In this document: positions 6,866 through 46,486 of the stretch, one piece after another
Position numbering within the stretch: the first letter of the stretch is position 1
Layout of the letters: each line of letters starts with the position of its first letter
Source of the DNA: Escherichia coli
GTDB lineage: Bacteria > Pseudomonadota > Gammaproteobacteria > Enterobacterales > Enterobacteriaceae
Reading direction: 5' to 3' (one strand)
Length of the DNA stretch: 64,000 nt
NCBI RefSeq assembly: GCF_036507355.1
Contig: NZ_AP027877.1
Notes under the pieces: model-generated
Told to the model about the DNA's origin: nothing
The model's database searches: none
Seen by the model: the letters and a program-made list of their open reading frames with translations, nothing else
Program-made: the position numbers and the translations under genes

Positions 6866-6920
6866 GGTGATGCTGCCAACTTACTGATTTAGTGTATGAT
6901 GGTGTTTTTGAGGTGCTCCA

Positions 6921-7196: not shown

Positions 7197-7618
7197 CCTC
7201 GCGCATACAGCCGGGCAGTGACGTCATCGTCTGCGCGGAAATGGACGAACAGTGGGGCTATGTCGGGGCTAAATCGCGCCAGCGCTGGCTGTTTTACGCG
7301 TATGACAGGCTCCGGAAGACGGTTGTTGCGCACGTATTCGGTGAACGCACGATGGCGACGCTGGGGCGTCTTATGAGCCTGCTGTCACCCTTTGACGTGG
7401 TGATATGGATGACGGATGGCTGGCCGCTGTATGAATCCCGCCTGAAGGGAAAGCTGCACGTAATCAGCAAGCGATATACGCAGCGAATTGAGCGGCATAA
7501 CCTGAATCTGAGGCAGCACCTGGCACGGCTGGGACGGAAGTCGCTGTCGTTCTCAAAATCGGTGGAGCTGCATGACAAAGTCATCGGGCATTATCTGAAC
7601 ATAAAACACTATCAATAA
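7115..7618 (+). CDS. insB: IS1 InsB reading frame (transposase made as InsAB' by -1 frameshift)
   Basis: 167-aa -1-frame ORF overlapping the insA 3' end; slippery A6C motif TTAAAAAACTC at about 7171-7180. Confidence 0.85.
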
Positions 7619-7633
7619 GTTGGAGTCATTACC

Positions 7634-7642
7634 CGTTTTTCA
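7634..7642. repeat. IS1 target-site duplication, right copy (CGTTTTTCA)
   Basis: 9 bp immediately right of the IS1 end, identical to 6857..6865. Confidence 0.85.
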
Positions 7643-7821
7643 TTAAACCATCAGCCAGCCCCATAATATAAGGAGCCTGGGTAATACCGATAAGTACGTT
7701 TTCTTCTCTACGCAGAGAGATAACGCCCTCTAAAATAACGAAAGTATCTTCGCTATTGACATCACTGGAAAATATAACTTGCTTTTCATTATTAAACTCG
7801 AAGCGCGTACCGTATCTGGAC

Positions 7822-7939
<118 letters not shown>

Positions 7940-7961
7940 TATTTCTTCGGAGTGAAGAATA

Positions 7962-8132
<171 letters not shown>

Positions 8133-8150
8133 TGAATCGCCACGGATAAT

Positions 8151-8963: not shown

Positions 8964-9019
8964 CCGACAGAGCAGGCGAACAGGCCAGCAACAGGTGTTG
9001 TCACGGATAAAGGCGTACC

Positions 9020-9304
9020 TCAGTCGGACAGCTTTGCGAAGTACGCCGCGGCTTTTTTTAATATGTCCCGTTCGTCGGTAACCCGCTTCAGCTCTTTCTG
9101 GAGACGGCGGATCTCGGCCTGAGCATCTGACTGTTCTTTATTAGCGGAAGAATCCGGACCGTACTTCTTTATCCAGGCGTAAAGGCTGTGGGTGGTGATA
9201 TCGAGACGTGTTGCAACGCTGGCAACAGAATAACCGCGATCAACAACCTGTTTGACTGCTTCAATTTTAAACTCTTCGGGATAACGCTTACCGCTCATGG
9301 GCAC
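9020..9304 (-). CDS. IS3-family OrfA (HTH/leucine-zipper protein)
   Basis: 94-aa ORF MPMSGKRYPEEFKIEAVKQVVDRGYSVASVATRLDITTHSLYAWIKKYG... Confidence 0.9.
   Translation of the reverse strand: MPMSGKRYPEEFKIEAVKQVVDRGYSVASVATRLDITTHSLYAWIKKYGPDSSANKEQSDAQAEIRRLQKELKRVTDERDILKKAAAYFAKLSD
9040..9062 (-). other. Probable programmed -1 ribosomal frameshift site of the IS3-family element
   Basis: An A7 run on the coding strand (T7 at 9053-9059 on +) sits in the 0 frame as ttA AAA AAA Gcc near the OrfA 3' end, as in IS3-family OrfAB frameshift windows. Confidence 0.6.
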
Positions 9305-9361
9305 CTCTCTTTAAGCCATCTTAAATGACTCTGAGGTGTCTGTTAAACCCGTGGCGATTCA

Positions 9362-9699
9362 CCATGAATCAGGGAGTTGCTGATGTTCAACTGGTTTGTT
9401 GTTCCATCAGTAAAGTCATGATTCAGGTAATATGTAGAGATAGCCCCGTTAACAGTGTCACCATTAAAGGTGGTATCGAAATCACCGTTTGTGTTGTTAT
9501 AGTAGACAAAGCCACTATAATTCACATAGTTACCATCTACAGTACCCGGTGCATCCATATTGCTCCAGTCAAGAGCAGTAGTTGGATTGTCGTAATAAGT
9601 CCAGGTGTCATAAGTAGTTGCATTAGCCTGAGAGGTGATAGCCAGAGTGCAAGCCAATGCTAATTGTGATACTACAAGTTTCTTTTTCCAGGAGTGCAT
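9362..9699 (-). pseudogene. 5' remnant of an autotransporter-like gene (yaiT-like), signal peptide and start of passenger
   Basis: ORF begins MHSWKKKLVVSQLALACTLAITSQANA (Sec signal) followed by a Tyr/Asn/Thr/Asp-rich segment; the frame runs into the IS terminal repeat and stops. Confidence 0.55.
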
Positions 9700-14719: not shown

Positions 14720-15021
14720 GATTGTCTGCTCCCCTGTCTTGTTATGGGAGCAGTATTTCGTTGCGGGTCAGTTTGATAAAGGAATTAAAAGGTCTTGTTA
14801 AGAACAAAGCGTTTTTAGAAAAAAATCGGCAATGGTTAGCGAGTTTGCGCATTTTGCGGTTTTGGCGAACGTATCCCGCCGGTTCACAAGCCAGATAATA
14901 TGTGCGCGCTCCGGCAAATTATTGCCATTTTGTTACATCCATTCCATATCTGTCGCTGGTTGATTGCCAGCGCCGCGCCGTGATGCATGATAGGAGAATT
15001 AGATAATAAGAGAAGAAAAGT

Positions 15022-15651
15022 ATGATTCGGGTAGTGCTGGTGGATGACCATGTGGTGGTGCGCTCTGGCTTCGCACAATTACTCTCTCTGGAAGACGATC
15101 TGGAGGTCATTGGTCAGTACAGTAGTGCCGCGCAGGCATGGTCGGCATTAATCCGTGATGACGTCAATGTTGCCGTCATTGATATTGCCATGCCGGACGA
15201 AAACGGCCTCAGTTTGCTTAAGCGCCTGCGTGCACAAAAACCGCAATTTCGCGCCATTATTCTTAGCATTTATGACGCGCCAACCTTTGTGCAAAGCGCG
15301 CTGGATGCCGGTGCCAGCGGGTATTTAACCAAACGCTGTGGGCCGGAAGAGTTAGTGCAGGCGGTGCGCTCGGTCGGGCTGGGCGGGCATTATCTCTGTG
15401 CCGATGCGATTCGGGCTTTACGCGGCGGCGGGCAATCCGCCCAGGCGCTGGAAATTCTCACCCCGCGAGAACGTGAAGTGTTTGATTTACTTGTCAAAGG
15501 AGACAGCGTTAAAGAGATCGCCTTTAAACTCGAACTCAGTCATAAAACGGTACATGTGCATCGCGCCAATGTGCTGGGAAAACTGAACTGCCATAGCACC
15601 ATTGAACTGGTACATTTTGCGCTCGACCACCATCTGCTGGCGGGGCATTAA
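15022..15651 (+). CDS. NarL/FixJ-family response regulator, UhpA paralogue
   Basis: 209-aa ORF MIRVVLVDDHVVVRSGFAQLL... (receiver domain) with a C-terminal LuxR-type HTH (...VKEIAFKLELSHKTVHVHRANVLGKL...); similar to UhpA as recalled but distinct. Confidence 0.85.
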   Translation: MIRVVLVDDHVVVRSGFAQLLSLEDDLEVIGQYSSAAQAWSALIRDDVNVAVIDIAMPDENGLSLLKRLRAQKPQFRAIILSIYDAPTFVQSALDAGASGYLTKRCGPEELVQAVRSVGLGGHYLCADAIRALRGGGQSAQALEILTPREREVFDLLVKGDSVKEIAFKLELSHKTVHVHRANVLGKLNCHSTIELVHFALDHHLLAGH

Positions 15652-17192
15652 TGTCGCGCAATCTTCGTCATTGGGTGATTTCGCTGTTTATTGTGCTGGC
15701 CTGGGGAACCGGCTGGCTGATGCTGTGGACGCTCAGCTTTTATCTGACCAATAACGGTCAACAGGCGGTGTTGTTTCTCCCGCAGGGAGTTTATCTCGCC
15801 CTTGTTATTTTGCTCTCTCGCCGCTACTGGCCTGCGTTGGTGCTCCCCCCTTTGCTGATGATGTTCTGGCTCCATAGTGAACAGCTATTGAACGGTTATC
15901 TCATGCTGGCAACGCCGATTATTAGCCTGTTTCCTGTCCTCCTTGCGCAAAACTTCTGGCACCGTTTTCCACTTTACTGGCAGCGTCTGACGTTGCTGTT
16001 AGCCACTGTCACGGCAGCTTCATTGTTGAATACCGCCCTGCTCTCCCCTTTTATGTCAGGCCCAATAATGCTGCCGGGTTTGACCTCATTTACCGGCGGC
16101 GTATTACTGACGCCGTTTGTCTATCTTATCTTTGAGTTTCTGCGCCAGCAGCATCGCTACCAGCTCCTGGGACTCGATACGCATAATCCCCCCTTGCGTA
16201 CCTCTTTAATCATCTGGTGTAGCCTGTTTTTTATTATTGGTATCGGCACTCAGATGGTGCTGTCACCTGAAATTGAACGTCTGCTGTTGATCGTGGTCTT
16301 TTTGCCCAATGTGGTGATGGCGTGGAAATTTGGCTGGCAAGGTGGCGTACTCTCCGGGCTTTTGGGCAGCATGATGATCACCATCGCCCGCCAGATTGGC
16401 GTGGGCTTTAGTAACCTGGTGGAGCTGGAGATTTTCCTCGCGACCCAGGCCTTGCTGGGAATTGGCCTGGGCATTGCCATCAGTCGCCAGCAACATCTGG
16501 CGCTAAACCTGCACCATTACCGACAACGGCTGGAGGCCGAGCTGGCAGCGCGGCGGGCATTGGCGGAAAAGCTGATCCACACCGAGGAGGACACGCGAAA
16601 AAACCTGGCGCGAGAGCTGCACGACGAAATCGGTCAGAACATCACCGCCATTCAGATCCAGTCGCAACTGGTGAAGCGGGCGCGTGATCCGGCGCAAATT
16701 CAATCCGCAGCCAGCCAAATCAATGAGCTCGCCCGCCGCATTCATCTCTCCACCCGCCAATTGCTGCGCCAGTTGCGGCCTCCCGCGCTTGATGAACTGA
16801 CATTTCGCGAAGCGTTGTTGCATCTGATTAATGAATTTGCCTTTAGTGAACGCGGCATTCATTGCCAGTTTGCCTATCAACTGAACTCCACACCAGAAAA
16901 CGAAACGGTGCGCTTTACCTTGTATCGGTTATTACAGGAGTTGCTCAATAACGTCTGTAAACACGCCGAAGCCAGCGAAGTGACGATTATCCTGCGCCAG
17001 CAGGGAGAGGTATTGCATCTGGAAGTCAGCGACAACGGTGTGGGGATCGCCAGCGGGAAAATGGCCGGATTTGGCATTCAGGGGATGCGTGAGCGCGTCA
17101 GCGCCCTGGGCGGCGACTTAACGCTCGAAAAACAGCACGGCACGCGGGTAATTGTTAACTTGCCCACATTTTTGCAACAAATCGCCGGATAA
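15651..17192 (+). CDS. Sensor histidine kinase, UhpB paralogue (polytopic N-terminal domain, HisKA_3, HATPase)
   Basis: 513-aa ORF; about 8 hydrophobic segments in the N-terminal half, H-box ELHDEIGQ, G-box DNGVGI; start overlaps the regulator stop (TAATG). Confidence 0.85.
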   Translation: MSRNLRHWVISLFIVLAWGTGWLMLWTLSFYLTNNGQQAVLFLPQGVYLALVILLSRRYWPALVLPPLLMMFWLHSEQLLNGYLMLATPIISLFPVLLAQNFWHRFPLYWQRLTLLLATVTAASLLNTALLSPFMSGPIMLPGLTSFTGGVLLTPFVYLIFEFLRQQHRYQLLGLDTHNPPLRTSLIIWCSLFFIIGIGTQMVLSPEIERLLLIVVFLPNVVMAWKFGWQGGVLSGLLGSMMITIARQIGVGFSNLVELEIFLATQALLGIGLGIAISRQQHLALNLHHYRQRLEAELAARRALAEKLIHTEEDTRKNLARELHDEIGQNITAIQIQSQLVKRARDPAQIQSAASQINELARRIHLSTRQLLRQLRPPALDELTFREALLHLINEFAFSERGIHCQFAYQLNSTPENETVRFTLYRLLQELLNNVCKHAEASEVTIILRQQGEVLHLEVSDNGVGIASGKMAGFGIQGMRERVSALGGDLTLEKQHGTRVIVNLPTFLQQIAG

Positions 17193-17264
17193 CCAGGAAA
17201 AAGTCTTAGGTATCCCGGATTTTCTCTCATCCCCTTTCACTTTCATTTTCATATAGTCAGCAAC

Positions 17265-18581
17265 ATGGAGACAACCATGCACGCGCGTTCAGCGAGAGAA
17301 ATTAATCAATGCTACCGGACATTACGTCCGCGATTGCTGATGTGCATGATTATTGGCTACGCCGCATTTTATCTGACGCGAAAAAGCGTGAATTACGTCC
17401 TTCCGGCGCTACAAACCGACCTCGGACTGGATAAAGGCGACATTGGCCTGCTGGGTTCGCTGTTTTATCTCAGCTACGGATTGTCGAAATTTACCGCCGG
17501 ACTGTGGCATGACAGCCACGGACAACGCGGTTTTATGGGCGTCGGCTTGTTCGCCACCGGGTTATTGAACGTGGTGTTTGCCTTTGGCGAATCACTTACG
17601 CTTCTGCTTGTGGTCTGGACACTGAACGGTTTTTTTCAGGGCTGGGGATGGCCACCGTGTGCCCGCTTGCTGACCCACTGGTACTCACGCAATGAGCGCG
17701 GTTTCTGGTGGGGCTGCTGGAATATGTCGATCAACATTGGCGGAGCGATTATTCCGCTGATTAGCGCCTTTGCCGCCCACTGGTGGGGCTGGCAGGCCGC
17801 GATGCTGACACCGGGGATAATCAGCATGGCATTAGGGATCTGGTTAACGCTACAACTCAAAGGCACGCCCCAGGAAGAGGGATTACCGACAGTTGGTCAC
17901 TGGCGTCACGATCCGCTGGAGTTACGTCAGGAACAACAAAGTCCGCCGATGGGGCTGTGGCAAATGTTGCGCACCACCATGCTGCAAAATCCGCTGATCT
18001 GGCTACTGGGCGTCTCTTATGTACTGGTTTATGTGATCCGGATTGCGCTTAACGACTGGGGCAATATCTGGCTGACGGAAAGCCACGGTGTCAACCTGCT
18101 CAGCGCCAACGCCACGGTAATGCTGTTTGAAGTGGGCGGCTTACTCGGCGCGTTATTTGCCGGATGGGGATCGGATTTGCTGTTTAGCGGGCAACGAGCG
18201 CCAATGATTTTGCTGTTCACGTTGGGGTTGATGGTGTCAGTCGCCGCACTGTGGCTGGCACCGGTTCATCACTACGCTCTGCTGGCAGTGTGCTTTTTTA
18301 CCGTGGGCTTTTTCGTCTTTGGCCCACAAATGCTGATTGGACTTGCGGCGGTGGAGTGTGGGCACAAAGCTGCGGCGGGTTCAATCACCGGATTTCTCGG
18401 CCTGTTCGCTTACCTTGGCGCGGCGCTGGCAGGCTGGCCGCTGTCGCTGGTCATCGAACGCTACGGCTGGCCGGGAATGTTCAGTTTACTCTCGGTCGCC
18501 GCAGTACTTATGGGTTTACTGCTGATGCCGTTACTGATGGCGGGCATCACCACCACTCACGCTCGAAGGATAAAACAATGA
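17265..18581 (+). CDS. MFS protein, UhpC/UhpT-like (sugar-phosphate sensor or transporter)
   Basis: 438-aa 12-TM-like ORF adjacent to the UhpA/UhpB-like pair. Confidence 0.8.
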   Translation: METTMHARSAREINQCYRTLRPRLLMCMIIGYAAFYLTRKSVNYVLPALQTDLGLDKGDIGLLGSLFYLSYGLSKFTAGLWHDSHGQRGFMGVGLFATGLLNVVFAFGESLTLLLVVWTLNGFFQGWGWPPCARLLTHWYSRNERGFWWGCWNMSINIGGAIIPLISAFAAHWWGWQAAMLTPGIISMALGIWLTLQLKGTPQEEGLPTVGHWRHDPLELRQEQQSPPMGLWQMLRTTMLQNPLIWLLGVSYVLVYVIRIALNDWGNIWLTESHGVNLLSANATVMLFEVGGLLGALFAGWGSDLLFSGQRAPMILLFTLGLMVSVAALWLAPVHHYALLAVCFFTVGFFVFGPQMLIGLAAVECGHKAAAGSITGFLGLFAYLGAALAGWPLSLVIERYGWPGMFSLLSVAAVLMGLLLMPLLMAGITTTHARRIKQ

Positions 18582-19609
18582 AAATGACCTTTACCTCTAC
18601 TCTGATTGCTTCTGCCGTTGCGCTGGCGACTTTAACGGGTGCCGCGCAGGCAAAAGGCCGGCTGGTGGTCTATTGCAGCGCCACCAATGAAATGTGTGAG
18701 GCCGAAACCAAAGCGTTTGGCGAGAAATATGATGTAAAAACCTCGTTTATCCGCAACGGTTCCGGAAGCACCCTGGCAAAAGTCGATGCTGAAAAGAAAA
18801 ACCCCCAGGCTGACGTCTGGTACGGCGGCACTTTAGACCCGCAATCGCAGGCTGGCGAGATGGGCCTGCTACAGGCGTATAAATCCCCTAACCTTGAGCA
18901 GATCATGGAGAAATTCCGCGATCCGGCAAAAGTGAAAGGGAATCTGTCCTCTGCCGTTTATGTGGGGATCCTCGGTTTTGGCGTAAACACCGATCGTCTG
19001 AAAGAGAAAAACCTGCCGGTGCCGAAGTGCTGGAAAGATCTCACCAAACCGGAATATAAAGGCGAAATTCAAATTGCCGATCCGCAAAGTTCCGGTACTG
19101 CCTACACCGCCCTGGCTACTTTTGCGCAGCTGTGGGGGGAAGATCAGGCCTTTGATTATCTAAAACAACTGAACGCCAACGTCTCTCAGTACACCAAATC
19201 AGGCATAGCCCCGGCACGTAACGCCGCCCGTGGCGAAACGGCGATTGGTATTGGCTTCCTGCATGACTACTCGCTGGAAAAAGAACAGGGCGCGCCGCTG
19301 GAGTTGATTTCCCCGTGTGAAGGTACAGGCTACGAAATTGGCGGCGTCAGCATTCTGAAAGGCGCGCGCAACCTCGACAACGCCAAACTGTTTGTGGACT
19401 GGGTATTATCAAAAGAAGCGCAGGAACTGGCATGGAAGAAAGGGAAGTCTTATCAGATCCTGACCAATACCACCGCCGAAACGTCGCCAAACTCACTGAA
19501 GCTCGACGACCTGAAATTAATCAACTACGACATGGACAAATACGGTTCCACGGATGTTCGTAAGGCATTGATTAATAAATGGGTTAGCGAAGTAAAAATG
19601 GGTAAATAA
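18578..19609 (+). CDS. afuA: ABC transporter periplasmic binding protein, AfuA/FbpA-like
   Basis: 343 aa from MKMTFTSTLIASAVALATLTGAAQA (signal peptide); the track ORF 18251..19609 is an upstream alternate-start extension. Confidence 0.85.
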   Translation: MKMTFTSTLIASAVALATLTGAAQAKGRLVVYCSATNEMCEAETKAFGEKYDVKTSFIRNGSGSTLAKVDAEKKNPQADVWYGGTLDPQSQAGEMGLLQAYKSPNLEQIMEKFRDPAKVKGNLSSAVYVGILGFGVNTDRLKEKNLPVPKCWKDLTKPEYKGEIQIADPQSSGTAYTALATFAQLWGEDQAFDYLKQLNANVSQYTKSGIAPARNAARGETAIGIGFLHDYSLEKEQGAPLELISPCEGTGYEIGGVSILKGARNLDNAKLFVDWVLSKEAQELAWKKGKSYQILTNTTAETSPNSLKLDDLKLINYDMDKYGSTDVRKALINKWVSEVKMGK

Positions 19610-19677
19610 ACCCGCATTAGGCGCATTTGCCGGGTGCAGCGCAGACGCCTGCCCCGGCCAACCATACCGGAACTGCT

Positions 19678-21756
19678 ATGTCACAGACACTTGCACTCCA
19701 TCCCGTGAAAAAGCGGGATGCGATTTTCCTTTGGGTTTTGCTGGGCTGGCTGGCATTTATACTGTTGCCGAGCTGGAGCCTCGATTATGGCCTGCTGGAG
19801 TCCACGAGTGATGAGATCCTCGAGGCTTATGGCTGGTCGCATTTTAATATCAGCTGGCTGTGGTATTTGTTACCGAGTCTGTTGCTGGTTCGCCCGTTTC
19901 GTGAGGCCACACGCGAACAGCGTAGTCGTCATTATTTTGATGCCGGCTGGGCATTGCTCTGTATGGCGTTTATCGTCATCAGCGCCACCGTGGTTGGACG
20001 CGGTTTAGGCTACGCCGCCATCGTGCTGTTTGTCGAACTAGGCGCGATTATGACGCTGGCCTTAACCCGCCTCGAATGGCTGGGTGGCGACCGCTTCGTG
20101 ATCGGCTCACTGATTGCGATTGTGGCGCTGATTGGCATTTTTATCGTCTGGCCGAGCATCGCCATTTTTATCCCGATGTTCACCAACGACGCGGGAGAGT
20201 TCGCCCCGCTGGCGTTTATGACCGTGCTCTCGCAGGCACATATTGTTCAGGTGATCGTCAACTCTATCGTCTTGTCGATAGCGGTGGGGATAGGCTGTAC
20301 TTTCTTCGGCCTGGTGCTGGCGATTTATACCACGCGCATCGCTAAACGCAGCGCCATTATTGGTCGCATCTTTTCCATTTTGCCCATCGTTACGCCACCG
20401 TTTGTGGTCGGCTTAGGCGTGACGCTCATGATGGGGCGCTCCGGCTATGTTACGGAATTTATGGTGGAGTGGTTTGGGCTGACCAACACCAACTGGCTGT
20501 ACGGTTTTACCGGGATCTGGCTGGCACAGGTTCTGGCATTCACGCCAATGGCATTTATGATCCTCGACGGGGCCATTAAAACCATTCATCCCTCGCTGGA
20601 AGAGGCCTCCTACACCCTGCGCGCCAGCCGCTGGCAAACCTTTAACGGCGTGTTTGTGCCGTTGTTGAAGCCCGCACTCGCCAATGCCTTTTTAATCGTC
20701 GTGGTACAGTCACTGGCTGATTTCAGTAACCCGCTGGTACTTGGCGGTAACTTCGACGTACTGGCGACGCAAATTTACTTCTATATTACCGGCTCGCAGC
20801 TGGATTATCAGGCCGCCAGCACCCTTGGCGCTTTCCTGCTGCTGTTCTCGCTGCTGGTGTTCTGCATCCAGTATATGTGGATTGGTAAACGCTCTTACGT
20901 CACGGTTTCCGGCAAATCCTACCGTGGCGACGTCCAGCCGCTACCGGTCACCCTGGTGTGGAGCGTGGTCGCCATACTTGCGATATGGATTGCCTTTAAC
21001 GCCCTGCTCTACGGCAGCATTTTCTACGGCAGCTTCACGGTGAACTGGGGCGTGGACTACACCCTGACGCTGGATAACTTTATCAAGCTATTTGGTCAGG
21101 GAATGAGCGACGGCGCCTGGCCTTCACTGCTGGATACCCTGCTCTACGCCGGGATTGCCGCTCCCATTACCGCTATCTTTGGCCTGCTCATCGCCTGGGT
21201 GGTGGTGCGTCAACAATTCAAAGGCAAAAAGACCATCGAGTTCACCACCATGCTGTGCTTTGCCGTACCGGGTACGGTGGCGGGCGTTTCGTATATTCTT
21301 GCCTTTAACAGCGCTCCGGTTTATCTCACCGGAACGGCGGCAATTGTGATTATCTCGATGGTGATGCGTAACGTTCCGGTGGGTATTCGCGCCGGGATTG
21401 CGGGTCTGGGGCAGATCGACAAATCGCTGGATGAAGCCTCACTCAGCCTGCGCGCGGGTTCACTGCGAACCATTACGCACATTTTACTGCCGCTGCTGCG
21501 CCCGGCCATTCTCTCGGCCCTGATCTACAGCTTTGTGCGGGCCATCACGACGGTCAGCGCCATCGTCTTTCTCGTCACGCCGGACACCCGCGTGGCAACC
21601 GCCTACATTCTTAACCGCGTTGAAGACGGCGAATATGGCGTAGCCATCGCCTATGGTTCGATTCTGATCGTGGTGATGCTGGCGATTATTTTCCTCTTTG
21701 ACTGGCTGATCGGAGAAGCTCGTATCTCCCGTTCTAAAGCCAAAAACCAGGCGTAA
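19678..21756 (+). CDS. afuB: ABC transporter permease, AfuB/FbpB-like (duplicated transmembrane domain)
   Basis: About 692 aa from [24 protein letters not shown]...; large polytopic permease. Confidence 0.85.
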
Positions 21757-22814
21757 TGGAGCGCACTATGAGTCAGAAAAATTTTGTTGAACTGCGCAAC
21801 GTCACTAAACGATTCGGCAGTAATACGGTTATCGACAATATCAATCTCACCATTCCACAAGGGCAAATGGTGACGCTGCTCGGTCCTTCCGGCTGTGGCA
21901 AAACCACCATTTTGCGTCTGGTTGCCGGGCTGGAAAAACCGAGCGAAGGGCAAATTTTTATTGATGGCGAAGATGTCACGCATCGTTCCATTCAACAGCG
22001 CGATATCTGCATGGTGTTTCAGTCATACGCTCTGTTCCCGCATATGTCGCTGGGTGAAAACGTTGGCTACGGGCTGAAGATGCTTGGCGTGTCGCGTAGC
22101 GAAGTGAAACAGCGGGTGAAGGAGGCGCTGGCAATGGTGGATCTGGAAGGCTTCGAGGACCGCTATGTCGATCAGATTTCCGGTGGTCAGCAACAGCGTG
22201 TGGCACTGGCCCGCGCGTTGATCCTCAAGCCAAAGGTGCTGCTGTTTGATGAGCCGTTAAGTAACCTCGATGCCAACCTGCGCCGCAGTATGCGCGATAA
22301 GATCCGCGAGCTGCAAAAGCAGTTTAATATCACGTCGCTCTACGTCACTCACGATCAAAGTGAAGCTTTCGCGGTGTCCGACACTGTGCTGGTGATGAAT
22401 AAAGGTCACATCATGCAGATTGGCTCACCGCAGGATCTCTATCGTCAGCCAGCCTCCCGATTTATGGCAAGTTTTATGGGCGACGCCAACCTGTTCCCGG
22501 CGAACTTTAGCGAAGAGTATGTCGATATCTACGGTTATCGCCTGCCGCGCGCGGCGCATTTCCCGGCGCAAGGTAGCGGCACCGTCGGCGTTCGCCCGGA
22601 AGCCATCACCTTAAGCAATCACGGCGAAGAGAGTCAGCGTTGTGTTATTCGCCATGTCGCCTACATGGGGCCGCAGTACGAAGTGACCGTAGAGTGGCAT
22701 GGACAGGAGATTTTATTACAAGTAAACGCCACCCGTTTACAGCCCGATATTGGTGAGCACTATTACCTCGAAATCCATCCTTACGGGATGTTTGTTTTAG
22801 CGGATGCGGCATAA
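21756..22814 (+). CDS. afuC: ABC transporter ATP-binding protein, AfuC/FbpC-like
   Basis: 352-aa ORF with Walker [10 protein letters not shown], signature [14 protein letters not shown] and Walker B LLFDEP; the true start may be MSQKNF at 21768. Confidence 0.9.
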
Positions 22815-22896
22815 AAATAGCACATAAACGGTCCCCATCTGTCTTGAGGGACCGTTCACCTGGTTAGGCTTCGGACAACAATTATTCTCCAGTGTT

Positions 22897-34033: not shown

Positions 34034-34867
34034 ATGCAGAACAATGAGCAGACGGAATACAAAACCGTGCGCGGCTTAACCCGCGGTCTAATGTTATTAA
34101 ATATGTTAAATAAACTTGACGGCGGTGCCAGCGTCGGGCTGCTGGCGGAACTCAGCGGCCTGCATCGCACCACTGTGCGGCGACTGCTGGAGACGCTGCA
34201 GGAAGAGGGATATGTCCGGCGTAGTCCCTCCGATGATAGTTTTCGTCTGACCATCAAAGTGCGGCAATTAAGCGAAGGATTTCGTGACGAACAGTGGATT
34301 TCTGCACTGGCGGCCCCACTGCTGGGCGATCTGTTACGCGAAGTGGTATGGCCGACAGATGTGTCCACGCTGGATGTTGATGCAATGGTGGTACGCGAAA
34401 CCACCCACCGTTTCAGCCGCTTATCCTTTCACCGGGCAATGGTCGGGCGACGTTTGCCGCTTCTGAAAACCGCCTCGGGCCTTACCTGGCTGGCCTTTTG
34501 CCCGGAACAAGAACGCAAGGAATTAATCGAGATGTTAGCCTCCCGCCCCGGTGATGACTATCAACTGGCACGAGAACCGTTAAAGCTGGAAGCCATTCTG
34601 GCGCGCGCGCGCAAAGAGGGTTACGGACAGAACTACCGCGGCTGGGATCAGGAGGAGAAGATCGCCTCTATCGCCGTACCGCTGCGCAGTGAACAACGGG
34701 TGATTGGCTGTCTGAATCTGGTGTATATGGCGAGCGCAATGACCATCGAACAGGCCGCGGAAAAGCATCTTCCGGCACTACAACGGGTAGCAAAACAGAT
34801 CGAAGAAGGGGTTGAATCGCAGGCTATTCTGGTGGCCGGACGGCGAAGCGGCGTGCATTTACGCTAG
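34034..34867 (+). CDS. mhpR: IclR-family activator of the mhp operon
   Basis: 277 aa from MQNNEQTEYKTVRGLTRGLMLLNMLNKLDGGASVGLLAELSGLHRTTVRRLLETL... (IclR HTH plus effector domain). Confidence 0.9.
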   Translation: MQNNEQTEYKTVRGLTRGLMLLNMLNKLDGGASVGLLAELSGLHRTTVRRLLETLQEEGYVRRSPSDDSFRLTIKVRQLSEGFRDEQWISALAAPLLGDLLREVVWPTDVSTLDVDAMVVRETTHRFSRLSFHRAMVGRRLPLLKTASGLTWLAFCPEQERKELIEMLASRPGDDYQLAREPLKLEAILARARKEGYGQNYRGWDQEEKIASIAVPLRSEQRVIGCLNLVYMASAMTIEQAAEKHLPALQRVAKQIEEGVESQAILVAGRRSGVHLR

Positions 34868-34981
34868 TTACGCCAATGTGTAATTTGGCCCATTCTCATC
34901 GTTATTCGCCCATTTGCCCACATGCACAGCACGGGCTGCACGCTACGCTAATGACATCAATACTGTGATGTGGAGCAAATC

Positions 34982-35758
34982 ATGAAAATTACGCAAATTC
35001 GTAATGCCACCCAAATTATCCAATACGCTGGCAAAACATTTCTTATCGACCCGTTACTCGCGCCTAAAGGAAGTTATCCGGGTTTTGCCGGAACGGCACG
35101 CGCAGAAATCCGCAATCCAACGGTAGAATTACCGTGCGATTTAACAACGTTACTCAACGTTGACGCCCTAATCGTGACCCATTTGCATGAAGATCATTGG
35201 GACGAAACAGCCTCCCGCGTCGTCCCTAAAGATAAACTGATTTATGTGCAAAATGAGCAAGATGCGGAATCACTGAATAAACAAGGATTTACGCATCTTA
35301 CCGTACTTACCGACGAGACTAAATTTGGCGATATTACTCTGCATAAAACGACAGGGCAGCACGGCTCCGATCGCACCTATGCCGACCCGGCGATGGCGAA
35401 GCGTTTAGGCGCAGCCTGCGGCGTTGTTTTCCAGCACCCGACAGAGAAAACGCTCTATCTGGCTGGCGATACCCTCTGGCGTGACGACGTCGAGGCTACA
35501 ATGCTAACTTTCCAACCAGAAGTGGTTGTGTTGAATGCCGGATTTGCGCATGTTCTGGGGCATGGCGCGATAATTATGGGAGCAGAAGATATTCTCAAAA
35601 CACATTTTACCCTGCCAGAAGCGCAAATTGTCGCGACACATATGGAGGCCGTAAACCACTGTTTGCTGACGCGTGATGCGCTCAAGGAATACGCCAGAGA
35701 TAATCAAATTATCGAATTTGTGAACGTACCAGAAGATGGTGAAACGTTGACATTCTAA
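34982..35758 (+). CDS. Metallo-beta-lactamase-fold hydrolase (HxHxDH motif), function unknown
   Basis: About 258 aa from MKITQIRNATQIIQYAGKTFLIDPLL... with metal-binding motif THLHEDHWD; not part of the K-12 mhpR-lacI interval as I recall it. Confidence 0.75.
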   Translation: MKITQIRNATQIIQYAGKTFLIDPLLAPKGSYPGFAGTARAEIRNPTVELPCDLTTLLNVDALIVTHLHEDHWDETASRVVPKDKLIYVQNEQDAESLNKQGFTHLTVLTDETKFGDITLHKTTGQHGSDRTYADPAMAKRLGAACGVVFQHPTEKTLYLAGDTLWRDDVEATMLTFQPEVVVLNAGFAHVLGHGAIIMGAEDILKTHFTLPEAQIVATHMEAVNHCLLTRDALKEYARDNQIIEFVNVPEDGETLTF

Positions 35759-35777
35759 TTCGGAGATAAAGAGTGTT

Positions 35778-36731
35778 ATGCGCCCGCTAACTGTTGCCAT
35801 TATCGCCGTTGCCGGTTTTAGTCCTTTTCACCTTTCCGTACCGTTTATCGTATTTAGCGAAAAAATGGCGGAGAAAAAACACTTTCACGTAATTATCTGC
35901 GCTGAAAAGCCGGGAAACGTGGACTCTGCCGATGGGTTTTCCGTAACCGCCACCCATGACTATACCGCAGTCATCCAGGCGGATATTGTGATAATTCCTT
36001 ACTGGGGAACAATTACACAAAAACCGCCACAAAAACTGCTGGAAGCCTTAACGACCGCACGGGATAACGGCGCACAGATTGTCGGGCTTTGCCTGGGCAC
36101 GTTTGTGCTCGGCTATGCAGGTTTACTGAAAAATAAGCGTGCCGCCACGCACTGGGAGTTCGAGCGTGAATTTCAGGCACGTTTTCCACAAACACATCTG
36201 GATATTAACGCGTTGTACGTAGACGATGACGGCATTATTACCTCTGCCGGTACTGCCGCGGCGCTGGATTGCTGTTTGTATATTGTTCGGCAACATTTTG
36301 GCAGCGACTATGCTAACCATATTGCCCGACGGATGGTCGTACCGCCATATCGCACCGGCGGTCAGGCGCAGTTTATTGAGCAACCAGTGCCGAAAAATAC
36401 CCATGATGAACGCATTAATCTCCTGCTGGATTACCTGCGGCAAAACATTGCGCAACAGCATGATCTCGACTCGCTGGCGCAGCGAGTAATGATGAGTCGC
36501 CGCACATTAACTCGCCATTTTATGAAAGCGACCGGTTCGAGTATCGCCGAATGGCTCATTACTGAACGCTTACGCCGTAGCCAGGAACTGTTGGGATCCA
36601 GTCAGTTGCCCGTTGAGCGGATAGCGGCTGAGGTGGGTTTTCTCTCACCTGTGACCTGGCGTCAGCATTTTAAATCTCACTTCGGCGTCAGCCCCGCCGA
36701 ATGGCGCAAAACCTTTCGCGGTATGGCATGA
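35778..36731 (+). CDS. AraC-family regulator with N-terminal DJ-1/PfpI-like domain (GlxA-type)
   Basis: 317-aa ORF; N-terminal class-I glutamine-amidotransferase-like fold with GLCLG elbow; C-terminal AraC HTH (...RRTLTRHFMKATGSSIAEWLITERLRRSQELL...GFLSPVTWRQHFKSHFGVSPAEWRK); its last about 30 nt are the lacI promoter. Confidence 0.8.
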   Translation: MRPLTVAIIAVAGFSPFHLSVPFIVFSEKMAEKKHFHVIICAEKPGNVDSADGFSVTATHDYTAVIQADIVIIPYWGTITQKPPQKLLEALTTARDNGAQIVGLCLGTFVLGYAGLLKNKRAATHWEFEREFQARFPQTHLDINALYVDDDGIITSAGTAAALDCCLYIVRQHFGSDYANHIARRMVVPPYRTGGQAQFIEQPVPKNTHDERINLLLDYLRQNIAQQHDLDSLAQRVMMSRRTLTRHFMKATGSSIAEWLITERLRRSQELLGSSQLPVERIAAEVGFLSPVTWRQHFKSHFGVSPAEWRKTFRGMA

Positions 36732-36745
36732 TAGCGCCCGGAAGA
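36700..36745 (+). promoter_or_regulatory. lacI promoter
   Basis: cgaatGGCGCAAaacctttcgcggtatggCATGATagcgcc matches the canonical lacI promoter (-35 GCGCAA, -10 CATGAT) as recalled. Confidence 0.8.
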
Positions 36746-36767
36746 GAGTCAATTCAGGGTGGTGAAT

Positions 36768-37850
36768 GTGAAACCAGTAACGCTATACGATGTCGCAGAG
36801 TATGCCGGTGTCTCTTATCAGACCGTTTCCCGCGTGGTGAATCAGGCCAGCCACGTTTCTGCGAAAACGCGGGAAAAAGTGGAAGCGGCGATGGCGGAGC
36901 TGAATTACATTCCCAACCGCGTGGCACAACAACTGGCGGGGAAACAGTCGTTGCTGATTGGCGTTGCCACCTCCAGTCTGGCCCTGCACGCGCCGTCGCA
37001 AATTGTCGCGGCGATTAAATCTCGCGCCGATCAACTGGGTGCCAGCGTGGTGGTGTCGATGGTAGAACGAAGCGGCGTCGAAGCCTGTAAAGCGGCGGTG
37101 CACAATCTTCTCGCGCAACGCGTTAGTGGGCTGATCATTAACTATCCGCTGGATGACCAGGATGCCATTGCTGTGGAAGCTGCCTGCGCTAATGTTCCGG
37201 CGTTATTTCTTGATGTCTCTGACCAGACTCCCATCAACAGTATTATTTTCTCCCATGAAGACGGTACGCGACTGGGCGTGGAGCATCTGGTCGCATTGGG
37301 TCACCAGCAAATCGCGCTGTTAGCGGGCCCATTAAGTTCTGTCTCGGCGCGTCTGCGTCTGGCGGGCTGGCATAAATATCTCACTCGCAATCAAATTCAG
37401 CCGATAGCGGAACGGGAGGGCGACTGGAGTGCCATGTCCGGTTTTCAACAAACCATGCAAATGCTAAATGAGGGCATCGTTCCCACTGCGATGCTGGTTG
37501 CCAACGATCAGATGGCGCTGGGCGCAATGCGCGCCATTACCGAATCCGGGTTGCGCGTTGGTGCGGATATCTCGGTAGTGGGATACGACGATACCGAAGA
37601 CAGCTCGTGTTATATCCCGCCGTTAACCACCATCAAACAGGATTTTCGCCTGCTGGGGCAAACCAGCGTGGACCGCTTGCTGCAACTCTCTCAGGGCCAG
37701 GCGGTGAAGGGCAATCAGCTTTTGCCCGTCTCTCTGGTGAAAAGAAAAACCACCCTGGCGCCCAAGACGCAAACCGCCTCTCCCCGCGCGTTGGCCGATT
37801 CATTAATGCAGCTGGCACGGCAAGTTTCCCGACTGGAAAGCGGGCAGTGA
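36768..37850 (+). CDS. lacI: Lactose operon repressor
   Basis: 360 aa from the GTG start VKPVTLYDVAEYAGVSYQTVSRVVNQASHVSAKTREKVEAAMAELNYIPN...; the track ORF starts 3 codons upstream at an alternative GTG. Confidence 0.97.
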   Translation: MKPVTLYDVAEYAGVSYQTVSRVVNQASHVSAKTREKVEAAMAELNYIPNRVAQQLAGKQSLLIGVATSSLALHAPSQIVAAIKSRADQLGASVVVSMVERSGVEACKAAVHNLLAQRVSGLIINYPLDDQDAIAVEAACANVPALFLDVSDQTPINSIIFSHEDGTRLGVEHLVALGHQQIALLAGPLSSVSARLRLAGWHKYLTRNQIQPIAEREGDWSAMSGFQQTMQMLNEGIVPTAMLVANDQMALGAMRAITESGLRVGADISVVGYDDTEDSSCYIPPLTTIKQDFRLLGQTSVDRLLQLSQGQAVKGNQLLPVSLVKRKTTLAPKTQTASPRALADSLMQLARQVSRLESGQ

Positions 37851-42355: not shown

Positions 42356-42400
42356 ATCAATGTCGGATGCGGCGCGAGCGCCTTATCCGACCAACATATC
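42356..42400. repeat. REP element between lacY and lacA
   Basis: tgtcggatgcggcgcgagcgccttatccgacc. Confidence 0.75.
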
Positions 42401-42417
42401 AGGACGGAATGATCGCA

Positions 42418-43027
42418 ATGAACATGTCGATGACAGAAAGAATAAAAGCAGGCAAGCTATTTACCGATATGTGCGAAGGCTTACCGGAAAAAAGACTTCG
42501 TGGGAAAACGTTAATGTATGAGTTTAATCACTCGCATCCATCAGAAGTTGAAAAAAGAGAAAGCCTGATTAAAGAAATGTTTGCCACGGTAGGGGAAAAC
42601 GCCTGGGTAGCCCCCCCGTCTATTTCTCTTACGGTTCCAACATCCATATAGGCCGCAATTTTTATGCAAATTTCAATTTAACCATTGTAGACGACTACAC
42701 GGTAACGATCGGTGATAACGTATTGATTGCACCCAATGTTACTCTTTCCGTTACGGGACACCCTGTACACCATGAATTGAGAAAAACGGTGAGATGTACT
42801 CTTTTCCGATAACGATTGGCAATAATGTCTGGATTGGAAGTCATGTGGTCATTAATCCAGGCGTCACCATCGGGGATAATTCTGTTATTGGCGCGGGTAG
42901 TGTCGTCATAAAAGACATTCCACCAAACGTCGTGGCTGCTGGCGTTCCTTGCCGGGTTATTCGCGAAATAAACGACCGGGATAAGCAATATTATTTCAGA
43001 GATTACAAAGTTGAATCGTCAGTTTAA
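42418..43027 (+). pseudogene. lacA: Galactoside O-acetyltransferase gene with two -1 frameshifts
   Basis: The LacA-like sequence sits in three frames: MNMSMTERIKAGKLF...ENAWV (frame 1, stop at 42649-42651), [55 protein letters not shown] (frame 3), [24 protein letters not shown]...KVESSV (frame 2); the shifts coincide with a C7 run (42611-42617) and an A5 run (42782-42786). Confidence 0.8.
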
Positions 43028-43029
43028 AT

Positions 43030-43129: not shown

Positions 43130-44284
43130 TCATGCCTCTTTGACCCACAGCTGCGGAAAACGTGCTGGTGCAAAACGCAGGGTTATAATCATCAGCCCAA
43201 CGACGCACAGCGCATGAAACGCCCAGTCCATCAGGTAATTGCCGCTGATACTACGCAGCACGCCAGAAAACCACGGGGCAAGCCCGGCGATGATAAAACC
43301 GATCCCCTGCATAAACGCCACCAGCTTGCCAGCAATAGCCGGTTGCACAGAGTGATCGAGAGCCAGCAGCAAACAGAGCGGAAATGCGCCGCCCAGACCT
43401 AAACCACACACCATCGCCCACAATACCGGCAATTGCAGCGGCAGCCAGATAAAGCCGCAGAAACCCACCAGTTGTAACGCCAGTGCCAACAGCAAAAGTT
43501 TGCGCCGATCCTGATGGCGAGCCATAGCAGGCATCAGCAAAGCTCCTGCGGCTTGCCCAAGCGTCATCAATGCCAGCAAGGAACCGCTGTACTGCGCGCT
43601 GGCACCAATCTCAATATAGAAAGCGGGTAACCAGGCAATCAGGCTGGCGTAACCACCGTTAATCAGACCGAAGTAAACACCCAGCGTCCACGCGCGAGGA
43701 GTGAAAACCACGCGAACCGGAGTGGTTGTTGTCTTGTGGGAAGAGGCGACCTCGCGGGTGCTTTGCCACCACCAGGCAAAGAGCGCAACAACGGCAGGCA
43801 GCGCCCACCAGGCGAGTGTTTGATACCAGGTTTCGCTATGTTGAACTAACCAGGGTGTCAGGGCGGCACCAAGCCCACCGCCGCCCATCAGAGCCGCGGA
43901 CCACAGCCCCATCACCAGTGGCGTGCGCTGCTGAAACCGCCGTTTAATCACCGAAGGCATCACCGCCTGAATGATGCCGATCCCCACCCCACCGAGCAGT
44001 GCGCTGCTAAGCAGCAGCGCACTTTGGGGGTAAAGCTCACGCATCAATGCACCGACGGCAATCAGTAACAAACTGATGGCGACGCTGCGACGTTCGCTGA
44101 CATGCTGATGAAGCCAGCTTCCGGCCAGCGCCAGCCCGCCCATGGTAACCACCGGCAGAGCGGTCAACAGGGCAGCCACGCTAAAGCTCATTCCGCTTGC
44201 CTGGCGCAATTGCGGTAGCAGTGGCCCGACGGAGGTGAGCAGTGGTCGCATATTAAGACCAATCAGCACCAGAACCAGCAGCAT
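43130..44284 (-). CDS. cynX: Cyanate transporter (MFS)
   Basis: About 384 aa from MLLVLVLIGLNMRPLLTSVGPLLPQLRQASG...; the track ORF extends to 44311. Confidence 0.9.
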   Translation of the reverse strand: MLLVLVLIGLNMRPLLTSVGPLLPQLRQASGMSFSVAALLTALPVVTMGGLALAGSWLHQHVSERRSVAISLLLIAVGALMRELYPQSALLLSSALLGGVGIGIIQAVMPSVIKRRFQQRTPLVMGLWSAALMGGGGLGAALTPWLVQHSETWYQTLAWWALPAVVALFAWWWQSTREVASSHKTTTTPVRVVFTPRAWTLGVYFGLINGGYASLIAWLPAFYIEIGASAQYSGSLLALMTLGQAAGALLMPAMARHQDRRKLLLLALALQLVGFCGFIWLPLQLPVLWAMVCGLGLGGAFPLCLLLALDHSVQPAIAGKLVAFMQGIGFIIAGLAPWFSGVLRSISGNYLMDWAFHALCVVGLMIITLRFAPARFPQLWVKEA

Positions 44285-44316
44285 CGTGAACGTCTTTTGA
44301 TGGTTACGCATGGCTG

Positions 44317-44805
<489 letters not shown>

Positions 44806-44817
44806 TTAAAAATAAGG

Positions 44818-45477
44818 TTACGCTGCGGTCGGTTGGCGTAGCGGTATGGCACAAACGCGAGGATTAGCGGCCAGTGGCACAAACTGGCGGGTTGCGCCGT
44901 CAAACGCTGCGATGCTGCCGCTTTCAATATCGTAGACCCAGCCGTGCAGGGCGATCCGCCCCTCTTCGAGCGCCAGGCGCACCGATGGATGAGTTTGCAA
45001 ATTAGCCAACTGAGCAATGACGTTTTCACGTACCATCGCCGCAGCTTTTGACGGTAAATCGGAATGCGGGCGCGCCTCATTAACGACGCGGGCTGAATCG
45101 GCATAACGCAGCCAGTGGGAGACGGCAGGCATATGGTCCATGCACTGACAGCTGGCAATGGCGGCCATCGCGCCACAGTTGGAATGACCGCAAATCACAA
45201 TGTCAGATACCCGAAGCGCAGCGACGGCATACTCCACCGAAGCAGAAACGCCACCGGGTTCCGGCCCGTAGGAAGGGACGATATTGCCCGCGTTGCGAAT
45301 AACGAACAGATCGCCAGGCTCACGTTGCGTCACCAGCTCAGGGACCAGACGGCTGTCGGAGCAGGAGATAAAAAGTGTGCGCGGGCTTTGCTGTGTCGCC
45401 AACTGTTTAAATAAGGCTTCCCGCTTCGGAAATGCCTCGCGCTGGAATTTAAGGAATCCATCAATAATCTCTTTCAC
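44818..45477 (-). CDS. cynT: Carbonic anhydrase (beta class)
   Basis: 219-aa ORF with beta-carbonic-anhydrase motifs (CSDSR, HSNCGA). Confidence 0.95.
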
Positions 45478-45586
45478 CGTTAACCTCTATCTGTCTCTGG
45501 AATGAGAGGCAGACTACTCGCCGATTGTCATAAGGTAAAAGTCTCATTTATGATGAGTTCTATTGGATTTACTTATAGGTCGGCGA
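45478..45586. promoter_or_regulatory. Divergent cynR / cynTSX control region
   Basis: Intergenic region between divergent cynT and the LysR-type cynR; individual sites not resolved. Confidence 0.5.
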
Positions 45587-46486
45587 ATGCTCTCTCGACA
45601 TATCAATTATTTTCTTGCCGTGGCTGAACATGGCAGCTTCACCCGTGCCGCCAGTGCGTTGCACGTCTCTCAGCCTGCGCTTTCCCAGCAGATTCGCCAG
45701 TTAGAGGAGAGTTTAGGCGTGCCGCTGTTTGACCGTAGCGGGCGAACGATTCGTCTCACTGATGCAGGAGAAGTCTGGCGACAGTACGCCAGCCGGGCGT
45801 TACAGGAACTGGGGGCGGGTAAACGGGCGATTCATGATGTTGCCGATCTGACGCGAGGATCGCTGCGTATCGCCGTCACCCCCACCTTTACGAGCTACTT
45901 TATCGGCCCCTTAATGGCGGATTTCTATGCGCGCTATCCCGGCATCACGCTCCAGCTACAGGAAATGTCGCAGGAGAAAATCGAAGATCTGCTTTGCCGC
46001 GACGAGTTGGACGTTGGGATTGCCTTCGCGCCTGTGCATTCGCCGGAGCTGGAGGCAATTCCTTTACTGACAGAAAGTTTAGCGTTAGTCGTGGCGCAAC
46101 ATCATCCGCTGGCTGCCTGTGAACAGGTGGCGTTGAGTCGCTTGCATGATGAAAAACTGGTCCTGCTCAGCGCGGAATTTGCCACCAGAGAGCAAATTGA
46201 CCACTACTGCGAGAAAGCGGGGCTGCATCCACAGGTGGTCATTGAGGCGAACTCAATTAGCGCGGTTCTGGAGCTGATTCGCCGCACTTCCCTTTCCACA
46301 TTGTTACCAGCAGCGATTGCCACACAACATGACGGGCTTAAAGCTATTTCTCTTGCCCCGCCACTACTGGAGAGAACGGCGGTTTTGTTGCGGCGGAAAA
46401 ATAGCTGGCAGACAGCCGCCGCGAAGGCATTTTTGCAAATGGCGTTGGATAAATGTGCGGTTGTTGGCGGAAATGAATCGCGGTAA
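45587..46486 (+). CDS. cynR: LysR-type activator of the cyn operon
   Basis: 299 aa from [44 protein letters not shown]...; the track ORF starts 8 codons upstream. Confidence 0.92.

Follow-up and report, generated by a model that had tools for sequence, protein, structure and literature searches.

We analysed a 64-kb stretch of an Escherichia coli chromosome (hereafter the window) that spans the lac-mhp region with the gene order mhpR, lacI, lacZ, and we describe here the two genes that lie between mhpR and lacI: a homologue of saxA, predicted to encode an isothiocyanate hydrolase (ORF1, the first of two open reading frames), and ovrA, which encodes a regulator of the AraC type (ORF2). Homology between the window and K-12, as traced by megablast, ends at 34863 and picks up again at 36698, and at the site of the intervening 1834-bp segment K-12 has only about 10 nt. 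A preliminary description of this DNA had put mhpR and lacI less than 100 bp apart in K-12, which agrees with the 76 bp found in MG1655; it had also placed two co-oriented reading frames 19 bp apart in the interval, as the coordinates bear out, and had allowed that K-12 might carry the same two genes, whereas the alignment shows K-12 without the segment. The genes and the segment are as follows.

34034..34867, plus strand: mhpR, the left flank; its stop codon is TAG in the window and TGA in K-12-type genomes, and it abuts the left deletion breakpoint
34864..36697, plus strand: segment of 1834 bp missing from K-12, O-island 19, delimited by megablast of the window against K-12
34982-35758, plus strand: ORF1, the saxA homologue (z0443 of EDL933), 258 amino acids from its ATG, named by SaxA homology
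35778-36731, plus strand: ORF2, ovrA (z0442), 317 amino acids, starting 19 nt after ORF1
36768..37850, plus strand: lacI, 36 nt 3' of ovrA, from the annotation of identical loci

In five E. coli genomes the two reading frames are unbroken and evolve under purifying selection (dN/dS 0.02-0.20); they are real genes rather than chance ORFs. The ATG of saxA is preceded by GGAG 7 nt to its 5' side, and an in-frame GTG lies further upstream at 34970. The true start of lacI is the GTG at 36768; the start at 36759 given by the ORF finder is an in-frame GTG further upstream. An Rfam search of 34500-37000 matched no RNA family.

The product of ORF1 is a candidate isothiocyanate hydrolase

The metal-binding motif THLHEDHWD, from which the preliminary description had recognized a metallo-beta-lactamase (MBL) fold, occupies residues 66-74 of ORF1 (35177-35203), and the Pfam match to Lactamase_B_2 (2.2e-11) agrees with it. 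A search against all PDB sequences was far more specific: 6BRM, the isothiocyanate hydrolase SaxA, matches at E = 4.1e-88 over residues 1-258 and 3RPC at E = 2e-72, and the next match beyond these reaches only 0.0085, so that other MBL families trail by about 70 orders of magnitude. Both alignments are full-length, with identities of 54% to 6BRM and 47% to 3RPC, and the HxHxDH motif and the downstream ligands (H67, H69, D71, H72, H127, D163, and H220) are invariant in them. ORF1 is also 51% identical to SaxA of the Pseudomonas syringae group. A protein database search at E <= 1e-20 gave 3912 homologues, among them proteins of Citrobacter (75-81% identity), Enterobacter (~65%), and Klebsiella (~61%). 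By its MBL fold, its metal ligands, and its end-to-end homology to the solved SaxA, ORF1 is a member of the SaxA family. No signal peptide is present, and the E. coli protein is probably a cytoplasmic MBL-fold enzyme and a candidate isothiocyanate hydrolase. The preliminary description had proposed lactones, esters, or aldehydes as substrates; homology points elsewhere, to isothiocyanates. Among the NCBIfam models none is specific for ORF1, and PRK00685/UPF0173, whose cut-off is 144 bits, was rejected because ORF1 scores only 53.6.

SaxA converts an isothiocyanate to an amine and carbonyl sulfide (PMC7303113). According to PMC7036374, saxA is widespread in Enterobacterales, where it forms five clusters, and the catalytic properties (isothiocyanate hydrolase activity) are kept in all of them. 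The SaxA proteins of Pseudomonas (L077 5896-6777; L086 5001-5882) carry about 33 extra N-terminal residues that resemble a signal peptide (MKFTTLPLALGIACGAAAVPAFAG...), which the enterobacterial proteins lack; Pseudomonas SaxA is thus probably periplasmic, in contrast to a predicted cytoplasmic detoxification in Enterobacterales.

Just past lacA, the window also holds the cyanate operon (cynX, cynS, cynT, and cynR, 43130-46486), in which CynT is a carbonic anhydrase. Carbonyl sulfide, the by-product of SaxA, is a known substrate type of beta-carbonic anhydrases; the nearness of two systems for the detoxification of N=C=X compounds, sax and cyn, may be coincidence.

The enzyme is paired with its regulator in many genera

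Scanning one genome per species yielded 80 loci that encode SaxA homologues. In 72 of these a full-length OvrA homologue (44-80% identity) lies directly beside saxA, in taxa that include Enterobacterales, Vibrionaceae, Marinomonas, Idiomarina, Pseudomonas, and Advenella. In Enterobacterales, Vibrionaceae, Marinomonas, and Idiomarina the regulator gene is co-oriented and 3' of saxA, from which 17-163 nt separate it, and in Pseudomonas, Stutzerimonas, and Advenella it is divergent and 5' of saxA. Clustering of the ORFs within a few kb in all 80 loci found nothing conserved besides saxA and ovrA, apart from antisense shadow ORFs; an isochorismatase gene occurs near saxA in 8 loci. The antisense ORFs are long minus-strand frames (35455-36461 in the window) that overlap saxA and ovrA and recur in 36-37 of the 80 loci (L004-L083). 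We rejected them as a conserved family, as they are shadows of the sense genes and recur only through their overlap with saxA and ovrA.

The founding locus was reached through a P. syringae-group protein that UniRef names an aliphatic isothiocyanate resistance protein. A regulator with DJ-1_PfpI and HTH_18 domains is divergent there from SaxA (293 amino acids), which is followed by an isochorismatase, an order that corresponds to saxC-saxA-saxB, and OvrA aligns with that regulator from end to end at 44% identity. The name of the P. syringae sax locus stands for survival in Arabidopsis extracts. Its role in isothiocyanate resistance is genetically established (PMC6922522; PMC12903958). Neither the saxB isochorismatase nor a saxD/F/G efflux gene was found in or adjoining the module of the window; judged by homology, the E. 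coli unit is a minimal saxA-saxC pair. The suggestion in the preliminary description of a compact sensing or detoxification unit was right in spirit, because the pair is conserved as a module of enzyme and regulator in many genera.

A conserved operator-like motif abuts the putative saxA promoter

The upstream regions of saxA cannot be aligned between genera except for one shared block, with the consensus ATTGGCCCGATTTCATCGATAATTGTCCTTTAGGCCAC. This footprint spans the range from Escherichia through Vibrio and Marinomonas to P. syringae, where it includes the saxC-saxA intergenic region, and in the window it falls next to a putative promoter.

34884..34924, plus strand: operator-like motif TTTGGCCCATTCTCATCGTTATTCGCCCATTTGCCCACATG, 41 nt, from the phylogenetic footprint; predicted site for an OvrA/SaxC-type regulator
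34921..34949, plus strand: putative saxA promoter, with a -35-like CATGCA (34921-34926), a 17-nt spacer, and a -10-like TACGCT (34944-34949)

The motif contains two TTGnCC boxes 21 bp apart in direct repeat, each with a second conserved box about 10 bp further on, a pattern that would be expected for two AraC-type monomers bound to direct repeats. A 41-nt position weight matrix (PWM) found a match on the same strand within 400 bp 5' of saxA in 71 of the 80 loci and only 8 matches elsewhere in 1.87 Mb, several of them within loci that hold a second copy of saxA. The whole window has a single match, at 38.4 bits, and no other above 12 bits. The motif overlaps the -35-like hexamer by 4 nt, and the -10 is conserved in Citrobacter as TACGAT. 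From this geometry, which resembles that of a class II activator, we infer that OvrA bound at the motif activates saxA-ovrA. Scans for consensus promoters and terminators gave nothing above shuffled expectation, and no strong sigma-70 promoter was found 5' of saxA; a weak match is to be expected here, since the proposed promoter would depend on an activator.

OvrA is a SaxC-type regulator of the GlxA family

Pfam divides ORF2 into two domains, DJ-1_PfpI (3.2e-12, residues 6-171) and HTH_18 (3.4e-19, residues 233-311), and thereby upholds the GlxA-type layout, with a GLCLG elbow and a C-terminal AraC helix-turn-helix (HTH), that had been read from the letters in the preliminary description. PGAP names the protein accordingly a 'GlxA family transcriptional regulator'.

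35793-36290, plus strand: DJ-1/PfpI-like sensor and dimerisation domain of ovrA (Pfam)
36474-36710, plus strand: AraC HTH_18 DNA-binding domain of ovrA (Pfam)

The elbow corresponds to residues 103-107, with Cys105 encoded at 36090-36092. Cys105, H125, W126, and C165 are invariant in all 72 SaxA-linked OvrA homologues, and C166 is present in at least 97%. Among solved structures, the best match to the sensor domain is the isonitrile hydratase InhA (E = 5e-13), on whose catalytic Cys101 Cys105 aligns, and the best match to the DNA-binding domain is AdpA (E = 4e-23). OvrA scores 324.6 bits against the FtrA model (NCBIfam NF006902, cut-off 425), to which it is related without being a member, and 125.6 bits against GbdR (cut-off 480), of which it is likewise a non-member. 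Because it falls below both curated cut-offs, OvrA is classed by sequence as a distinct, SaxC-type subfamily within the GATR/GlxA family of AraC regulators.

An isothiocyanate would react readily with a thiol of the elbow type, which makes covalent sensing an attractive idea. We weighed whether the elbow Cys points specifically to such sensing of isothiocyanates and rejected this use of it: an unrelated GATR near the P. syringae sax locus carries the same Cys, and the residue is often conserved across GATRs (bioRxiv 10.1101/2021.11.02.466972), so that it is family-wide. According to the same work, GATRs typically bind the promoter of an adjoining catabolic gene with or without ligand and activate it with ligand, which agrees with the activation of saxA-ovrA proposed above; the characterised members (GbdR, CdhR, CahR, and the ArgR type) respond to amine-containing compounds, by a mode of ligand binding that is unknown.

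The segment is O-island 19, whose regulator acts on the LEE

A full-text search for the EDL933 locus tags led to two reviews on enterohaemorrhagic E. coli (EHEC), from which the segment could be recognized as O-island 19 (OI-19). Section 22 of PMC8565820 describes OI-19 of EHEC O157:H7 as 1834 bp that hold z0442 (ovrA, short for 'OI-encoded virulence regulator A') and z0443, listed as a hypothetical protein whose function is unknown. In that section and in section 7 of PMC10877973, OvrA is reported to bind 5'-GACATTTAATGATAATG-3' in the LEE1 promoter of the locus of enterocyte effacement (LEE), to activate ler and the LEE, and to promote adherence and colonisation of the mouse colon, both of which are reduced in an ovrA mutant; according to the same two sections, deletion of z0443 has no effect on virulence. 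The OI-19 passages of the two reviews extend this role of OvrA to O145:H28, O157:H16, and O55:H7 strains. The preliminary description was therefore wrong to regard the pair as lacking an assigned function: the segment is a published island, its regulator is OvrA, and the enzyme family is SaxA. Its further thought that both proteins might turn out to be well characterised was half right, as this applies to the regulator and to the enzyme family and not to the E. coli enzyme or to the link between regulator and enzyme. The OI-19 passages of PMC8565820 and PMC10877973 make no link between z0443 and SaxA, and literature searches that combined saxA with E. coli O157 returned only irrelevant matches.

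The segment in the window is 99.1% identical in nucleotides to that of EDL933 and other O157:H7 genomes, and OvrA and the z0443 product each differ from their EDL933 counterparts by one residue. We located the published 17-mer GACATTTAATGATAATG in the LEE1 promoter of Sakai, on the ler strand (L091 40468-40484, minus strand); the window itself contains no LEE. It begins inside the TTGACA -35 hexamer and covers the spacer, an odd position for an activator. Nowhere in the 50 kb of the Sakai LEE region does the saxA-type PWM exceed 1.2 bits; the region thus contains no copy of the conserved operator, and we gave up the notion of a native-type OvrA site at LEE1. As many genera without a LEE also keep the module, control of the LEE by OvrA is probably a later, lineage-specific co-option.

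The module is ancestral and was lost by deletion

Alleles of the locus were surveyed in 5426 complete E. coli genomes. The whole module is present in 435, most of which are O157:H7, O55:H7, or O145; about 487 retain only its last ~68-99 nt, and most others have the K-12 arrangement. What remains of ovrA in K-12-type genomes is its last 34 nt with the stop codon, and an identical junction occurs in five unrelated strains (K-12, ST131, O111:H8, 405, and PO06101), which argues that a single deletion gave rise to this allele. Its exact left breakpoint is blurred by about 8 nt at the junction (GACACCAT) that can be aligned to neither flank. B2-type genomes (Nissle 1917, UTI89, NC101, and A0 34/86) have a different junction, in which yaiL is joined to a 99-nt remnant of ovrA that PGAP annotates as 'GlxA family transcriptional regulator, incomplete, missing N-terminus'.

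36633..36731, plus strand: 3' end of ovrA kept in B2-type genomes, from alignment and PGAP annotation

Because this remnant is longer than that of K-12, the B2-type allele is not derived from the K-12 allele; as judged from the alignments, it goes back to a second and larger deletion, which took the mhp genes as well. In all, 92% of sequenced E. coli have lost the module; apart from about 40 genomes, these losses trace to two different deletions.

The order mhpR...saxA-ovrA...lacI-lacZ is shared with Citrobacter, and a contig named as C. rodentium (L089) reads saxA-ovrA, 33 bp, lacI-lacZ-lacY. The synonymous divergence of saxA and ovrA (dS 0.01-0.12) matches that of the flanking mhpR and lacI, even in the divergent E. 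coli lineage E400634, and the GC content of the module is 47-52%. No integrase or insertion sequence (IS), tRNA gene, or boundary repeat was found at the module. On the strength of the remnants in genomes that lack it, the synteny in Citrobacter, the flank-like dS, the ordinary GC content, and the absence of mobility genes, the sequence comparison identifies the module as ancestral and lost by deletion, and not as a newly acquired island.

The 3' end of ovrA overlaps the lacI promoter

We take the lacI promoter to be the GCGCAA-17 nt-CATGAT element of Calos 1978, in which lacIq is a mutation of the -35.

36704..36740, plus strand: lacI promoter within the 3' end of ovrA, with -35 GCGCAA (36704-36709), -10 CATGAT (36727-36732), and a start near G36740

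Its hexamers fall within the last nine codons of ovrA, whose TGA stop (36729-36731) lies inside the -10, and the K-12 deletion ends 6 nt 5' of the -35. In the C. rodentium-named contig, the 3' end of ovrA and the lacI promoter overlap in the same way. A terminator scan of the plus strand over 35758-36768 found only a weak match inside a gene and none between ovrA and lacI; because of this, transcription from the saxA promoter may read through into lacI in carriers of the module.

In the Citrobacter freundii complex (L005 7743-8444, and also L004 and L007) a convergent gene for a methyltransferase-like protein of about 233 amino acids lies between ovrA and lacI, flanked by a diverged second copy of the segment that comprises the 3' end of ovrA and the lacI promoter; in C. 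youngae (L006) this gene is internally deleted. We considered whether the lacI promoter was born when E. coli lost a Citrobacter-like methyltransferase gene. The C. rodentium-named contig is equally fused, so that the change may have run in either direction.

Proposed mechanism and alternative explanations

We consider it quite probable that the segment is a self-contained, sax-type module for isothiocyanate detoxification with an activator-type regulator, that it sits at its ancestral site between mhpR and lacI, and that its role at LEE1 is secondary. This proposal is based on homology, gene pairing, the conserved motif, synteny, deletion junctions, and purifying selection; the substrate in E. 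coli, operator binding, the identity of the inducer, and read-through into lacI are inferred. ORF1 would hydrolyse isothiocyanates (R-N=C=S), which derive from the glucosinolates of crucifers, to a harmless amine and carbonyl sulfide. OvrA would be the cognate activator of saxA, a dimeric AraC-family protein with a DJ-1/PfpI-like ligand domain, seated on the 41-nt direct-repeat operator that abuts the -35 of saxA. Upon binding its ligand (the isothiocyanate itself or possibly the amine product), OvrA would switch on saxA-ovrA and perhaps, via read-through, lacI. Activation of LEE1 in EHEC would represent a secondary, lineage-specific use of OvrA, and most E. coli, including K-12, lost the module in one 1.8-kb deletion, many B2 strains in a separate, larger one.

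The published view differs from this proposal on origin and on function: OI-19 is taken as a horizontally acquired, EHEC-type island whose function is the activation of LEE1 by OvrA, with z0443 as an irrelevant passenger. In its favor are the binding of OvrA to LEE1, the adherence and colonisation defects of the ovrA mutant, and the lack of a virulence phenotype of the z0443 mutant, as given in the two review sections (PMC8565820 section 22; PMC10877973 section 7), together with the restriction of the module to 435 of 5426 complete genomes, mostly of the serotypes named above. However, the pair is kept together in dozens of genera without a LEE, which excludes LEE control as the ancestral role, and the LEE region itself has no copy of the conserved operator. 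The hallmarks of acquisition (integrase, IS, tRNA, flanking repeats, unusual GC content) are missing, the synteny at lacI extends to Citrobacter, dS equals that of the flanks also in the divergent E. coli lineage, and the ovrA remnants of 34 nt in K-12-type and about 99 nt in B2-type genomes are explicable only by deletion. These data contradict 'acquired island' and 'passenger' and leave activation of the LEE by OvrA itself uncontradicted; we regard the published view, taken as a whole, as improbable.

A second alternative keeps the unit of enzyme and regulator and changes its chemistry: the substrate in the gut could be another heterocumulene, electrophile, or hydrolysable compound in place of a plant isothiocyanate, or the regulator could sense an amine. 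Sensing of the product by OvrA is a live alternative because the characterised GATRs all respond to amine-containing compounds (bioRxiv 10.1101/2021.11.02.466972) and the product of SaxA is a primary amine; the elbow Cys, shared as it is with the unrelated P. syringae GATR, is not specific to isothiocyanate sensing. On the other hand, the module has its enzyme, its regulator, and its operator in common with the sax locus of P. syringae, for which a part in isothiocyanate resistance is a genetic fact (PMC6922522; PMC12903958), the hydrolase activity is reported for all five enterobacterial SaxA clusters (PMC7036374), and the gut bacteria of herbivores and omnivores do encounter dietary isothiocyanates. 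We judge a different substrate or an amine signal to be unlikely, though slightly less so than the published view.

Several observations weigh against the isothiocyanate module that we favor. In P. viridiflava, saxA is mildly induced by isothiocyanates, which in itself speaks for the module, but this induction is small, and saxC is not induced (PMC12903958). Deletion of saxC in Xanthomonas left tolerance to sulforaphane unchanged, and the sensing of sulforaphane by sax genes was called unknown in 2023 (PMC10098062). The SaxA proteins of Enterobacterales that are not associated with plants 'may serve additional purposes', in the words of PMC7036374, which also suits the alternative of another substrate. 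GACATTTAATGATAATG at LEE1, the one OvrA site that has been mapped by experiment, is unlike the conserved saxA motif, so that either OvrA has two modes of binding or one of the site assignments is wrong. Finally, the upstream regions scored with the PWM had also served to train it, for which the low genome-wide background is the control. A bolder version of the isothiocyanate module, in which OvrA senses isothiocyanates directly, possibly by covalent modification of Cys105, crucifer isothiocyanates in the gut turn on saxA, the LEE, and, by read-through, extra LacI, and the weak lacI promoter of K-12 is a remnant of the operon deletion, is in our view a speculative suggestion with a small chance of being correct in full.

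Other features of the window

The window departs from K-12 at other places. A block of 8.1 kb at 14757-22882 stands in place of yaiS-yaiP-yaiX/IS2-yaiO of K-12 and encodes a two-component sensor set resembling UhpA/UhpB/UhpC together with an AfuABC-like ABC transporter (NCBIfam); the same gene set occurs directly 5' of saxA in the C. rodentium-named contig L089. The alignment to K-12 is patchy over 6865-9416 (iprA-yaiT), where the yaiT autotransporter gene of K-12 is interrupted by IS3 and the window differs. Over 61156-64000, homology to K-12 stops at yahK and is followed by permease genes of a ribose/arabinose-type sugar ABC transporter, which K-12 does not have at this position. In lacA (42418-43029), the window lacks one A of the K-12 sequence at nt 194 of the gene and another at nt 366 (indels near 42610 and 42781), and these two single-base deletions split lacA into ORFs at 42367-42651 and 42794-43027; this could reflect a pseudogene or homopolymer errors in the assembly.

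Significance and comparison with known systems

The assignment gives z0443, hypothetical in the EHEC reviews, a concrete candidate function by homology, and it suggests a class of natural ligand for OvrA, a virulence regulator that figures in those reviews without a known signal; if true, it would connect diet, through crucifer isothiocyanates, with colonisation by EHEC. It also revises the status of OI-19 from acquired island to ancestral segment, and it explains a historical oddity, in that the classic lacI promoter is situated within the final codons of a gene now missing from K-12; the regulation of lacI may differ in OI-19-positive strains. The OI-19 locus, the OvrA regulator, and the SaxA enzyme family were already known, and our contribution is a re-annotation with mechanistic leads and no new kind of biology: the sax identity, the predicted operator, the argument for ancestry and deletion, and the overlap with the lacI promoter are new here.

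Compared with OI-19 of EDL933, the segment occupies the same locus between mhpR and lacI and has the same length of 1834 bp, whereas the window comes from another lineage of E. coli, with GF4-3 and PapM-32-1 as the closest complete genomes (99.6%); what the literature on OI-19 presents as an acquired island with a hypothetical z0443 appears here as an ancestral sax module. The predicted E. coli hydrolase aligns with the SaxA structures 6BRM and 3RPC over its full length and has the same metal ligands. The likeness of OvrA to InhA and AdpA is at the level of domains only, with no sign in its sequence that OvrA is a catalyst. With the GATR/GlxA regulators GbdR, CdhR, and CahR it shares the GATase1-like DJ-1/PfpI domain, the elbow Cys, and the C-terminal double HTH, and like them it adjoins the gene that it presumably controls; its partner enzyme, however, would act on an electrophile and not on a quaternary amine. 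The closest counterpart is saxC-saxA-saxB of P. syringae, to which the E. coli module is related by 51% identity in SaxA, 44% in the regulator, and the same operator-like motif 5' of saxA. There the regulator gene is divergent, SaxA carries a probable signal peptide of about 33 residues, and saxB lies next to it, whereas the E. coli module has a co-oriented regulator, a SaxA without signal peptide, and no saxB.

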